A DNA stretch of 60,041 nt, filler included, from Squatina squatina (taxonomy: Eukaryota): assembly GCA_031763465.1 (NCBI GenBank). It is 3 parts of 3 records of this genome, joined end to end, with 100 filler letters (N's around TTAATTAATTAA, not from the genome) between each part and the next. Parts side by side here need not be neighbours in the genome. Positions count along the whole stretch, not along the records: positions 35,358 to 60,041 come from JARFOE010000013.1; 2 more parts are not named here. One strand, 5' to 3'. Shown piece after piece: positions 51,997 to 60,041 of the stretch; within the stretch, counting starts at the first letter, position 1, and each line of letters starts with the position of its first letter. Under the pieces are notes generated by a model, which searched no databases, had not been told where the DNA came from, and saw nothing but the letters and a program-made list of their open reading frames with translations. The translations under genes were made by a program, and so were the position numbers.

Positions 51997-53646
51997 CTGA
52001 TGTTGAGCAGGCACTTGTTGTGATGTAGCCTTAGGTGATGAATGTTGTGACTGTACCCACGGCTGATGCTGATGAGGTGTAGGAGAAGTTTGATGATGCA
52101 CTGTTGGATGCTGTTTCACAGGTGGACAAGTTGGCAATTGAGGCTGAAAAGGCTGATTCGGGTGCTGCTGGCCTGACATTCGGCGCTCCTGCATCACCTG
52201 ATCTGCATGATTTCCACTGGGACCCAGTGCGCCGACTGGTCTTGGAAGGTTGCCAATATCCCTTGGCACAGAAGAGCTCATGTATTGTTGTGTCTGCATG
52301 CTTCTAGGGCCCATGCTCCTCTGTCCAAGTCCCATGGTACCCGGGGACTGATGTGGCTGTTGAGGCAGGGGCATGTTTGAATAGCTTCCAACTTCGAGCT
52401 GCATTCCAGCACTGCCAGGCCTAACTTGTGGTGGAGGGGTGCCTGCTGGGTTACTCATAGCTTTCATAGGTGACATTGGAGGTGGAGAAGCATAAGTTCC
52501 CTGAGACTGTGTGGGGTGCATAGTTTGTGCATTAATTTGGTTAAGTGGACCACCTGGATGTATAGGCTGCTGGTGCATTAGTCCTTGGCTNNNNNNNNNN
52601 NNNNNNNNNNNNNNNNNNNNNNNNNNNNNNNNNNNNNNNNNNNNNNNNNNNNNNNNNNNNNNNNNNNNNNNNNNNNNNNNNNNNNNNNNNNNNNNNNNNN
52701 NNNNNNNNNNNNNNNNNNNNNNNNNNNNNNNNNNNNNNNNNNNNNNNNNNNNNNNNNNNNNNNNNNNNNNNNNNNNNNNNNNNNNNNNNNNNNNNNNNNN
52801 NNNNNNNNNNNNNNNNNNNNNNNNNNNNNNNNNNNNNNNNNNNNNNNNNNNNNNNNNNNNNNNNNNNNNNNNNNNNNNNNNNNNNNNNNNNNNNNNNNNN
52901 NNNNNNNNNNNNNNNNGAGCGGGACGCACGGAAGGGCCCCTGTTGGGGGTGTGCTGGGGCATGTGAGATACGTGGCCTGGTCCTGAAGTTCCCATGAAAG
53001 GATGTCCCTGACTGAGGGCCTCTTGACCCTGAGTGAATTGGTTCACCCTCTGCTGCTGAGGCTGGTTGTGCTGTTGCAATGAATAATCACTACGCGTCAG
53101 GTAATTCCCCATCTGTTGCATATGCTGAGCATGCCCTTGCCCCGGAGGAGGTGGCTGTGGTTGCTGCTGTTGCTGGAAGGCAGGTCGGGTCTGTTCTGGC
53201 ACCTGGACAGCACGTGGTCCCCACATGGAGCTGCTTTCCACAAATTGCTGCCCACACCTTTCATTCTGCATAGTAGGGTATACTCCCATCTGAGCACCAC
53301 TGTGAGGGACTGGTGGAACTGAAGGATTGTGGTACTGCGAGTGAGGCGATGCCATGCCATTCCCAGGAGCATTACCAATCATTCGATTAGGCTGGTCTAC
53401 CAGATGCATTTTCTGCTGTTCAAACGGACCAAAATGATCATAATGTGTCAGCTTAGTTTGAGTCTGAGTGGGTGGGGGATGATGGAGGGGAGACTGCATG
53501 GAGCCAAATCCTTGATCCATGGGTAGTTGTTGCCCAAGAGCATTCACTGGATTCTCTGAAAAACCACATTCTCCAAGACCTTCAAGCCCTTCACTGAAAA
53601 TGTTCCCATCATCACCAAACAAACTCAGCATACCAGGATCTGCCAT
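51997..53646 (-). CDS. CHD7: CHD7 first coding exon (exon 2), Q/P/H-rich N-terminus, with an internal gap at 52591-52916
   Basis: ATG at 53646 (gaagATGg); [66 protein letters not shown] is diagnostic of CHD7; donor cag|gtgagt after 51997. Confidence 0.96.
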
Positions 53647-53833
53647 CTTCCTTGTGCTCACAGCTCCCCTAGTGGCACAAAAAGTGAACTATTCTGTGCT
53701 TCACCTCACCCACTTCCTTTCGAGGTGTACGTCCTCAAAGCCTTAAATCCTATGACTAATCTCCTGCATGTCACTCCACATTTCCTTAATTCTTTTGGAC
53801 AATTCAGTGTCAGGCAAAGTCTGGATAGAAGTC
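53647..53833 (-). other. CHD7: CHD7 exon 2 5' UTR portion
   Basis: Polypyrimidine tract and ccctag acceptor at 53834-53835; begins gacttctatccagactttgcctgacactg, close to the human exon 2 start as I recall it. Confidence 0.75.
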
Positions 53834-56800: not shown

Positions 56801-58546
56801 AACACCCCCAACCCCTCCTCCTATTACTCATACTATCATAGGCCTCAGTTTCCATCATAAGGAAACCTATTCAGCAACTCTACAGACAAGGGCTCTCATA
56901 GAAACCTAAATCTTCTTCTACTTTTGACTTGAACCCAAAAGTTACTTCAGAGTATAAAAAGTTTAAGTTCTAAAAAAATTCAACTTTTGTTCAATCACAC
57001 AATACACAAACACACCTGCCCACCTTAAAAAATGCCTAATATACTGGAATCTTCTTTCCAATAAAAGCAACTGAGACCTACTTTGCGAGCATTAAAATAG
57101 TACAGTTACAAGACAGAAAGTATCAGTAACCCTTGCATCAAACTATGGCAACATTATTACTGAATAGAGCACAACAGCTGTCAACTTAAAAGTCAGTTAT
57201 ATTATGTAACTGGTCTGTTTGTGAGCATTTTACAAGTATCAAGCTCAAGTTTAACACCAAAAACATTTCAATTGCCATAACACAATTCAGGTAAAATTAC
57301 TTAACCAGGCTATGACAAAAGCTTTGTGTAATGCTCATAACAGACTGATAACGTAAAGAAAGCAAGAACTTGCANNNNNNNNNNAAAACCAGCTTCTGAT
57401 GGCATTACATGATCACTGTATGGTGCAGTGGCCATTATATTCTGTATCCAATTTCTAACACAGGCCTTCTAAAGATTACATTCTGTTTGTGGGAAGAATA
57501 ACCCGAACTGAACGTGTTCCCAGGATTTATACAGTGCTTCCCAGATTCAGGTCAAGCAGAGGGCAATGTTAAATTACCAGTTTGACGTATGCAGCTTCCA
57601 TTCTGCAGAACATCGGCAGGAGANNNNNNNNNNNNNNNNNNNNNNNNNNNNNNNNNNNNNNNNNNNNNNNNNNNNNNNNNNNNNNNNNNNNNNNNNNNNN
57701 NNNNNNNNNNNNNNNNNNNNNNNAATTGTTTTTTAAAGCCTCTTCCCTCCCTTATCGCATCTCTCCTTCGCCCCTTTATCTCTGCCCCTTGGACCCCTCT
57801 CCTTACCCATTCCCTCCCCCTGACCCTCAGAGCGGCGGCAGCCACCGCGGTGCGTGTGTGAGAAACTAGTTCAAACCATTCGAGTCCACGCCAATGACCT
57901 CAGGGAACCACCAAGTACCCAAACCACACACACAGACAGATACACAGCGAGAGACAGAGGAGAAACTTACACGAAACCCACAATCATAGCACACAAAATA
58001 TAGGACAGGGCGCCGACACTCATTTATTACCAGAGAGAGAGAGAGACAGTAAACTCACTGCTGGCTGTGATGAGGACAGCGCTGCTCTATTAATGAAATG
58101 TTAATGGCTGCTTTTGCCAGCGGCAACGCACTCTCTCTAGTAGTGGTAGTTAGCAATCGCTGACCGCCTGCCCCCACCTCCTCCTCCCAGTCCTTTCATG
58201 TTTATTTACAGTCAAATTTCTTCTAACTCGACCCAAACGCCGACTCTCACACACTTTCTCTCCGTACTTACTTTGTTGGTGTTCCTTTTTTTTATTAAAT
58301 TGTTTTTTTTTCCTCACTCTTCTTTCGCTCTTGTGCGTTTTAAATTTAATTAAAATTCTGTTTTATCTTTATTTTTTTTTAGAAAAGGGTTTATTATAGA
58401 CTTTTCCCCAGCGGCGCTTCACTGGTGTTTTATAGTTGTGATAATCNNNNNNNNNNNNNNNNNNNNNNNNNNNNNNNNNNNNNNNNNNNNNNNNNNNNNN
58501 NNNNNNNNNNNNNNNNNNNNNNNNNNNNNNNNNNNNNNNNNNNNNN

Positions 58547-58620
58547 TAAAGGGTGGTAGGGGTTAGGGGGGGTAAAGGGTGGTAGGGGTTAGGGGGGGTA
58601 AAGGGTGGGGGTGAAGGGTA
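58547..58620 (+). repeat. G-rich 26 bp tandem repeat in MAP3K6 intron 1, running into a gap
   Basis: taaagggtggtaggggttaggggggg at 58547 and 58573, with a partial copy at 58599. Confidence 0.85.
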
Positions 58621-58646
58621 GCGAGACTCGGGGAAGGGTCGCCCAC

Positions 58647-59103
58647 CTGCGTTGTAGAAGCTGTCCAGGGTACCGGTCTCTCCCAGCACCAGTCTGCCGA
58701 ACGGCACGGTCTCCAGCACGGCGTGGGCATCTTGACAAGCCTCCCGGAGGCAGCGCAGCGACAGGCTGTCCTCGGAGTGCGGGCTCGGCGTCTCGTTCAG
58801 CACATAGACGGCTGTGAGCGGTCGGCTGCGGAGCCGGGGCGTCGGCACGGCCCTGCGGCTCATGTCGATGGCCAGCGGGTCCTGCCAGTAGCTGCCGGCG
58901 GACACGGACTGGGGCTGGTGCTGGCCGCCCGGGCTCTGCGCTCTCTCCGGGGCTCCGCCGCTGCTGGCAGTGCTGGTCCGGCGGCTCGCCGAGCCCCCCT
59001 GCTCGCTGCCTAGCCGCGCCGAGCCGCTCAGCTCTGCCGTGCCCCGGGAACTGGCCCCAAACTCTGGCCCAGCTCTCCGCTCTCCCTCCCTGTCCTCACT
59101 CAC
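58647..59103 (-). CDS. MAP3K6: MAP3K6 (ASK2) first coding exon; start codon uncertain
   Basis: AGSYWQDPLAIDMSR..RSRPLTAVYVL..LSLRCLREAC..VPFGRLVLGETGTLDSFYNA, then a G|gtgggc donor in phase 1. It matches human MAP3K6 (AGSCWQDPLAVALSR..RSRPLSVVYVL..LPLRCLREAC..LDAFYNAD) better than MAP3K5 or MAP3K15. Confidence 0.82.
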
Positions 59104-59700
59104 TCACTCCTTTGTGTTATTTCTCTCTCACCAGAAGTTGGAGCCCCGGCTTCCCCCGCGCGTTCTCGCGGCTTTCCTCCTCCTCTCCCCCCGTAACCCA
59201 CTCCACACTGTGCGTGCGCGCACCCGGCTCCCCGTTCACGTGCTCAATAACTCACGTCAATGAATCTCATTTGCATATTTCTATGCCACCTCCGGATTGG
59301 ACGTCCACCTCCCCCACCCGAGCACGCGGCCACGAACGCAAGGAAGGGGCCGAAAGAGAAAAAAAAATTCAAACGTCAAGATTCCGACTTTTAACGGCGC
59401 GGCTCGTCCGCCGACCGGGTAAAGTTCTTTCGCTTCTTTTTTTTTCCGACGCGTGATTTTTAGATTTTTTTTTATCTCTCGGTTTTCCAACGCTGGAAAG
59501 GGAGAATAAAAAGGAAATGTTGTCCTCTTTGACGTTTACCAATGGGATGAGTGCTTAGTAATGTGAAGGTTGGGTTGACGTGAGCCTCTGATGGATCGGA
59601 GCCAATCGGCCTTGACGTATGTTTACACGCACAAGGGCCCGGATTCTGCCACCGCCGTTATGTTACGTAGATGAGAGTGTGAGGGGATCCTGAAGTGTGA
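59104..59700 (-). promoter_or_regulatory. MAP3K6 CpG-island 5' UTR and promoter
   Basis: CpG-dense from about 58620; E-box CACGTG 59237-59242, octamer ATTTGCAT 59269-59276, CCAAT boxes at 59296, 59539 and 59602, and several TGACG sites. Confidence 0.7.
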
Positions 59701-60041
59701 GGTGGAGGCAGAGCCCCGTTAGACCGGTCATCCAACGAACAACTATCGAACCCTTGCATGTAAAATTATATACATTGTAATTAAACCAAGCTTTTTAGGT
59801 TGCTTGTAATGCTTTAAAAAATCAATTTAATTTGAAACCGCGCCACATTGTGTTGCGTAATTATCATTGTTTGTCTCGGCTCCTGAATGACGCAAGTGAA
59901 CAATAAAATGGACTCGTCTCCCCACGCGTACAGTCTGAGCCACGCACAGCTTTGTACTGTGTTGGCAGCAGGCGCAGCACATTGAAGTGTTAGATTAAAT
60001 GAAGCAGGTAGATTTTTAAAAATACATATTAAATGTGCATG

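Follow-up and report, generated by a model that had tools for sequence, protein, structure and literature searches.

A CTG at the orthologous start of MAP3K6 (ASK2) exon 1, close to a very probable mis-join with CHD7, in a draft assembly of Squatina squatina

MAP3K6 exon 1 and its start position

The window (the whole stretch of DNA analysed, 60,041 nucleotides with filler, from Squatina squatina assembly GCA_031763465.1) carries on its minus strand the coding part of exon 1 of MAP3K6 (ASK2). The exon occupies 58647..59031, that is, 128 codons and one base from the orthologous start to the splice donor, as delimited by tblastn and by the splicing of relatives. It sits on a contig of ~1.5 kb (58547-60041) that is flanked by N at both ends, with 100 N at 58447-58546 on the lower side; the assembly as a whole has a size of 1.5 Gb and is split into 1,152,659 contigs. 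Below the exon, the start of intron 1 (58547..58646, minus strand) opens with a GT donor at 58646 and ends at the contig end in a tandem repeat (58547-58608; 26-base unit, 2.4 copies). Above the exon lie 57 bases (59032..59088, minus strand), presumably a remnant of the MAP3K6 5' leader, which are in frame, open and contain ACG 59040. The segment from 59089 to 60041, again on the minus strand, is CHD7 sequence: exon 1 in its 5' part, up to about 59180, and then the promoter. It holds TGA 59106 and GTG 59103.

The assignment to MAP3K6/ASK2, made in the original prediction, is backed by a tree and by exon identity. The exon finds its best matches in 13 proteins of sharks and rays that carry the names MAP3K5 or MAP3K5-like. 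In a quick IQ-TREE tree of 29 full-length proteins (midpoint-rooted, with the Squatina squatina exon left out as too short), the shark "MAP3K5-like" clade joins turtle and lungfish MAP3K6 with an SH-aLRT of 100, and this MAP3K6 clade stands apart from true shark MAP3K5 and from teleost MAP3K15. By tblastn the exon is 71% identical to sawshark protein P0003 over 128 residues, with residues 1-118 of P0003 aligned to 59031-58648; identity to sawshark MAP3K5 (P0040) is 51% over 96 residues. Database names mislead in this family: many shark, ray, coelacanth and bony-fish proteins called "MAP3K5" or "MAP3K5-like" group with MAP3K6 (P0002-P0014, P0033, P0041, P0083, P0119 and P0131).

Cartilaginous-fish MAP3K6 proteins (XP_067867221.1; sawshark UniRef100_UPI00398E5E85) present the same exon 1, the same motif SAGSYWQDPLA and the same splice position, and have the N-terminus SGSARLGSEQGG in common with the Squatina squatina exon. 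They differ from it in that the first codon is CTG in Squatina squatina and the upstream DNA is CHD7 in the assembly. Contigs of four relatives splice at 58647 into exon 2, the letters of which translate as DVAVVEM. The coding conservation that had been noted above ATG 58863 is seen both in the protein alignment and in the relatives' contigs. The frame above this ATG is kept up to 58986 in runs X1 and X3, with net differences of -12 and -15 bases; the motif SAGSYWQDPLA is almost invariant in 18 orthologs and intact here, and the motif is also present in coelacanth and turtle proteins. The exon retains 41 of 41 invariant residues and departs from conserved columns at 6 positions (range 1-9 in the other 15 rows), and its substitution rate is no faster than that of sawshark.

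Residue 1 of the sawshark protein maps to 59031 in tblastn. The minus strand there reads CTG (59029..59031), in a column that is M in 8/8 shark genera and in all 10 shark proteins (from RefSeq and from one gene set outside it) among 18 aligned orthologs, and the next 12 residues are identical to those of sawshark. The first in-frame ATG (58861..58863, minus strand; MSRRAV) corresponds to residue 57 counted from the CTG. Its column reads ATC in 4/4 relatives' runs, and of 15 genus rows, 6 have Met there and 9 have Ile, so ATG 58863 is not the conserved start. The shark Met1 column, the 12 matching residues and the unconserved ATG 58863 together point to 59031 as the start position, one base from ATG and 57 bases from the join described below. 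A hidden upstream coding exon, which had been proposed, is not needed, since the orthologs start inside exon 1.

The start of MAP3K6 has moved in the rays and skates. Five of their 8 proteins start six columns down, two start ten columns down and one starts in the same column with gaps (P0007, P0010-P0014, P0163 and P0168); these shifts of 6 and 10 codons imply that real start changes occur. In S. canicula, Met stands at the start positions of sharks and of rays alike.

CTG 59031 was among the candidates for non-AUG initiation put forward in the original prediction, and it stands exactly on the orthologous start. To that extent the proposal holds. As to a near-cognate codon conserved across relatives, the annotation of all 10 shark orthologs gives Met (a comparison at the protein level only, the relatives' contigs ceasing to align at 58986 or below); the CTG is therefore at most a change in one lineage and may be a base error.

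The join between MAP3K6 and CHD7 sequence

The letters of the segment are as originally described: 58863 is the first in-frame ATG, no minus-strand ATG occurs in any frame at 58864-59267 (the next one is at 59270), an in-frame TGA is present at 59106-59104, and 80 codons are open from 59103 to 58866, with ACG 59040 (GGGGGC ACG G), CTG 59031 (GCAGAG CTG A; the purine G at -3, A at +4) and GTG 59103 all in frame. Against 2000 dinucleotide shuffles, the absence of ATG across 404 bases gives p = 0.04. In such shuffles the CHD7-derived part (59089-59267) gives p = 0.048 and the MAP3K6-derived part (58864-59088) gives p = 0.63, so the rarity over the 404 bases is owed to the CHD7-derived part. The frame is open over the 57 bases above the CTG, for which the chance expectation is 84% (5000 shuffles).

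What the relatives carry at this place is different. The comparison drew on contigs from 8 runs (8 organisms, 8 studies) among 21 listed; all of these sequences are contigs, of presumed RNA origin, and two are probably DNA. In 8/8 runs the relatives' contig leaves the stretch at 59089, adds 13 letters and then continues with 17 letters equal to 58446 downward, and in none of the 8 does it continue from 59089 into 59088. Two of the contigs that cross 59089 are 10-11 kb long, and MAP3K6 is found on a record separate from CHD7 in 7/8 runs. No difference from the window occurs at 59089-59179 in X1, X3 and X4, at 59089-59160 in X6 or at 59089-59140 in four further runs. The 13 bridging CHD7 letters have no match anywhere in the assembly, and no N marks the 59088/59089 join, which lies in GA-rich low-complexity DNA. 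Records of X11 at 58977-59014 and 59073-59116 were examined and set aside as unrelated look-alikes.

The 3' part of CHD7 exon 1 lies on the next contig (58272..58446, minus strand), the first 17 bases of which equal the relatives' loose end in 8/8 runs. With a GTAAGT donor at 58271, the exon would end at 58272. CHD7 exon 2 runs over 52957..53833 (minus strand) up to the next gap, with its acceptor at 53833 and ATG at 53646; its homologs are named CHD7 (E down to 1e-102). As a hint only, a short contig runs from 59131 straight into sequence that agrees with the exon at 53833 in 28/30 letters; its upper side is 30 letters long, one below the bridging threshold. About 22 kb above the stretch, on the same strand (minus), is a Ras-family exon (L004:2328-2600; G000:C13:8815578-8815850), which we take to be RAB2A, presumably the neighbour of CHD7. 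The continuity of relatives from 59089 to 58446 implies that 58547-59088 interrupts CHD7 exon 1.

The CHD7 sequence has features of its own. Over the part compared, exon 1 at 59089-59180 is the same in 8 other organisms, against a divergence of 11-17% in the MAP3K6 coding exon, and this very conserved piece of UTR may contain a second splice donor, at 59131. At 59265-59550, in the CHD7 promoter, two relatives have short low-depth contigs that match at ~90%, either promoter transcripts or DNA.

The 59088/59089 join is very probably an artefact of assembly. A mis-join in GA-rich and, we suppose, thinly covered DNA would be the simplest reading, and the scaffolder may have placed the 1.5-kb contig at this locus owing to its CHD7 half. 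The situation is like that of chimeric contigs in fragmented drafts, with two unrelated loci on one 1.5-kb contig, a low-complexity join, the remainder of the gene scattered and a locus that is unbroken in relatives. It differs from chimeric contigs proven by reads in that the join is recognised through comparison with relatives. Among the sequencing runs listed, none is of Squatina squatina and in none do half of the sequence words occur (best share 0.10), which speaks neither for nor against the join. A metagenome scan for shark DNA gave no match.

Since relatives carry 59089 upward into CHD7, the TGA, GTG 59103 and part of the "80 open codons" belong to the CHD7 5' UTR; these elements and the purine-rich upstream strand, first taken as the context of MAP3K6, are CHD7 exon 1. 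The long ATG-less open leader above the conserved motif is thus largely a product of the join. GTG 59103 was rejected as a start, being CHD7 sequence. ACG 59040, earlier named as a candidate with a strong Kozak context, does stand in a good context; it is placed three codons above the orthologous start, however, and finds no support. The 57 bases at 59032-59088 occur once in the assembly and probably belong to the MAP3K6 leader; no relative's contig from the 8 runs aligned to them. The true leader above 59088 is absent from the assembly.

The other exons of MAP3K6 were sought with the sawshark protein against the genome. Among 35 scored of 188 candidates, no other match lies on C13; 11 of 15 loci examined match MAP3K6 better than its paralogs, and 10 exon loci are on unplaced contigs of 620-1942 bases. 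One exon is on C168 (G000:C168:7989267-7989449; L009:4768-4944; sawshark residues 321-385) among NHL-repeat, SOCS-box, LOC400499 and VWD exons, and is probably on a misplaced or mis-joined contig. Because the C168 exon has these unrelated neighbours, no home locus of MAP3K6 was found (100 of 374 open frames were scanned). Neither a second copy nor another allele of exon 1 occurs in the assembly.

Readings of the CTG codon

The account that we favour would have an ordinary shark MAP3K6 exon 1 on the 1.5-kb contig, the part from 59089 on being the front of CHD7. CTG 59031 would be a miscalled or private ATG, and translation would begin with a standard AUG at that position. The probabilities given to the readings of the start are matters of judgement and were not computed. 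We place this account as a whole, mis-join and altered ATG together, a little short of an even chance, and a miscall or private allele at CTG 59031 is, taken by itself, likewise nearly but not quite an even call.

Several points bear on a base error. A single base is concerned, 57 bases from the mis-join, and the GC content around the exon is 71-78%. On the plus strand the ATG/CTG change is T to G, the most frequent error class on HiSeq in the part of PMC4787001 cited here; the class would fit if the assembly came from that platform. Counted against an error is that the base at 59031 is neither preceded by GG nor a copy of the preceding base, whereas error signatures of the GG-preceded and lagging-base kinds are described (PMC4787001 and PMC3141275, in the parts cited). 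The exon is, besides, otherwise intact, and the CHD7 bases beside the join show 0 differences from relatives. CTG is also a near-cognate codon such as is expected from a real start switch.

If the join is an artefact but the CUG is real and fixed, there would have been a lineage-specific switch from AUG to CUG, yielding full-length ASK2 at lower efficiency. We regard this as rather unlikely, and an added leaky scanning to AUG 58863, which would give a form 56 residues shorter, as similarly doubtful. The CTG lies exactly on the orthologous start position, the next 12 residues equal those of sawshark, the exon is under normal constraint and a purine stands at -3. There are also precedents in the conserved CTG-predicted extension of the human paralog MAP3K5 (PMC9789052 supplement file 9) and in genes with AUG in some species, such as UFSP1 (PMC3105428, in the part cited). 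Yet the case is a single base of a single fragmented assembly, 57 bases from a mis-join and seen in no other shark (10/10 Met); the +4 position is A, and the hairpin below the CTG is ordinary, the folding of 59045-58950 being no better than that of shuffles (z -0.41). A real CTG might instead go with an in-frame AUG that has arisen higher up, in the missing leader above 59088, and has taken over as the start, giving an extension of at least 19 residues. The frame is indeed open from 59088 to the CTG, but 57 open bases are expected by chance (84%); starts have shifted in rays, but by at most 10 codons and downstream. Two turtle MAP3K6 models have long upstream AUG extensions (P0017 and P0132), but the leader is absent from the assembly and nothing shows such an AUG, and we consider this reading unlikely. 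It is more improbable that the ancestral start was lost and AUG 58863 used, with the loss of the first 56 residues including SAGSYWQDPLA. Residue 69, below Met 57, is where the match to the solved ASK1 chain 8QGY sets in, and six other shark genera also have Met at the position of Met 57; these six, however, retain the Met further up, SAGSYWQDPLA hardly varies among 18 orthologs and is intact here, and the residues above 58863 show no decay.

Two further readings are less probable again. The join could be real, a copy of MAP3K6 exon 1 having been pasted into the CHD7 5' UTR by templated insertion, dead and with its ATG lost. The lack of N at the join and the absence of the bridging CHD7 letters from the assembly agree with this, but it is very improbable: no second copy of exon 1 exists, so that the live gene would lack the exon, and the exon shows no decay. 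The insertion would, moreover, cut through a UTR that 8 relatives carry unaltered; splicing to CHD7 exon 2, should it take place, would set a 114-codon frame ahead of the CHD7 start. Least credible of all, to the point of being nearly negligible, is a non-AUG start (CTG, ACG or GTG) conserved in MAP3K6, the database Met being an annotated CUG. Room for it is left in that relatives were compared as protein and the two closest contigs end their alignment at 58986. Against it, 18/18 orthologs start with M, and do so in three different columns, the start column of the rays holds an internal Met in S. canicula, the non-RefSeq model GCC36176.1 gives the same Met, and GTG 59103 is CHD7 sequence. The three start columns, the internal Met and the agreement of GCC36176.1 suggest that the relatives' Met is ATG. 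Gene predictors, as a rule, write Met for ATG.

On the favoured reading, a mis-join with a miscalled or private ATG, the locus serves as a warning: in this assembly, promoters and exons that are unrelated stand joined with no gap between them, and findings of a "missing ATG", a "stray exon" or a "captured exon" therefore need to be checked against relatives. What remains is a difference of one base, CTG for ATG, at the orthologous start. Should the CTG prove real and fixed, the main initiation site of a stress kinase would have changed cleanly from AUG to CUG in a single lineage; the sister sharks would all serve as AUG controls, and the birth of non-AUG initiation could be tested in reporters. 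That one shark lineage swapped the ASK2 initiator AUG for a tunable CUG, with the N-terminus intact and the next AUG as a leaky fallback, is of rather low probability in our judgement. If true, it would, with the human ASK1 CUG extension, make start-codon stringency a recurring control point of the ASK family.

Comparison with known non-AUG starts

N-terminal extensions from non-AUG codons, and starts exclusively at such codons, form an established class (PMC3105428 and PMC9789052, in the parts cited here), with UFSP1, EIF4G2, TRPV6, STIM2 and TEAD1 among its members (Ivanov 2011, PMC3105428; Fedorova 2022, PMC9789052). As these sources describe it, the class has in common with the present case the coding conservation above the first AUG and the in-frame near-cognate codon, and in UFSP1 an AUG is present in a few species but missing from others (PMC3105428). 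The class rests, however, on many species or on ribosome profiling, in contrast to one base in one draft here, and the annotation gives Met for all other sharks examined. By sequence comparison, then, the cross-species conservation that would place CTG 59031 in this class is not seen.

In the literature searched, no report links MAP3K6 with non-AUG initiation. MAP3K6 has 0 matches in the 13 supplement files of PMC9789052 that were searched, and MAP3K is absent from the main text of PMC3105428. MAP3K5/ASK1 is absent from the main text of PMC9789052, though listed in its supplement file 9. The entry (row 26) gives human MAP3K5/ASK1 an 80-codon upstream extension, assigned to PhyloSET, with a PhyloCSF of 305.7, CTG as the predicted start and rank 1113. 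The human gene belongs to the same kinase family and has a CTG candidate, as in the MAP3K6 case; it is a paralog, and its extension lies above an AUG that is kept, whereas CTG 59031 replaces the AUG position.
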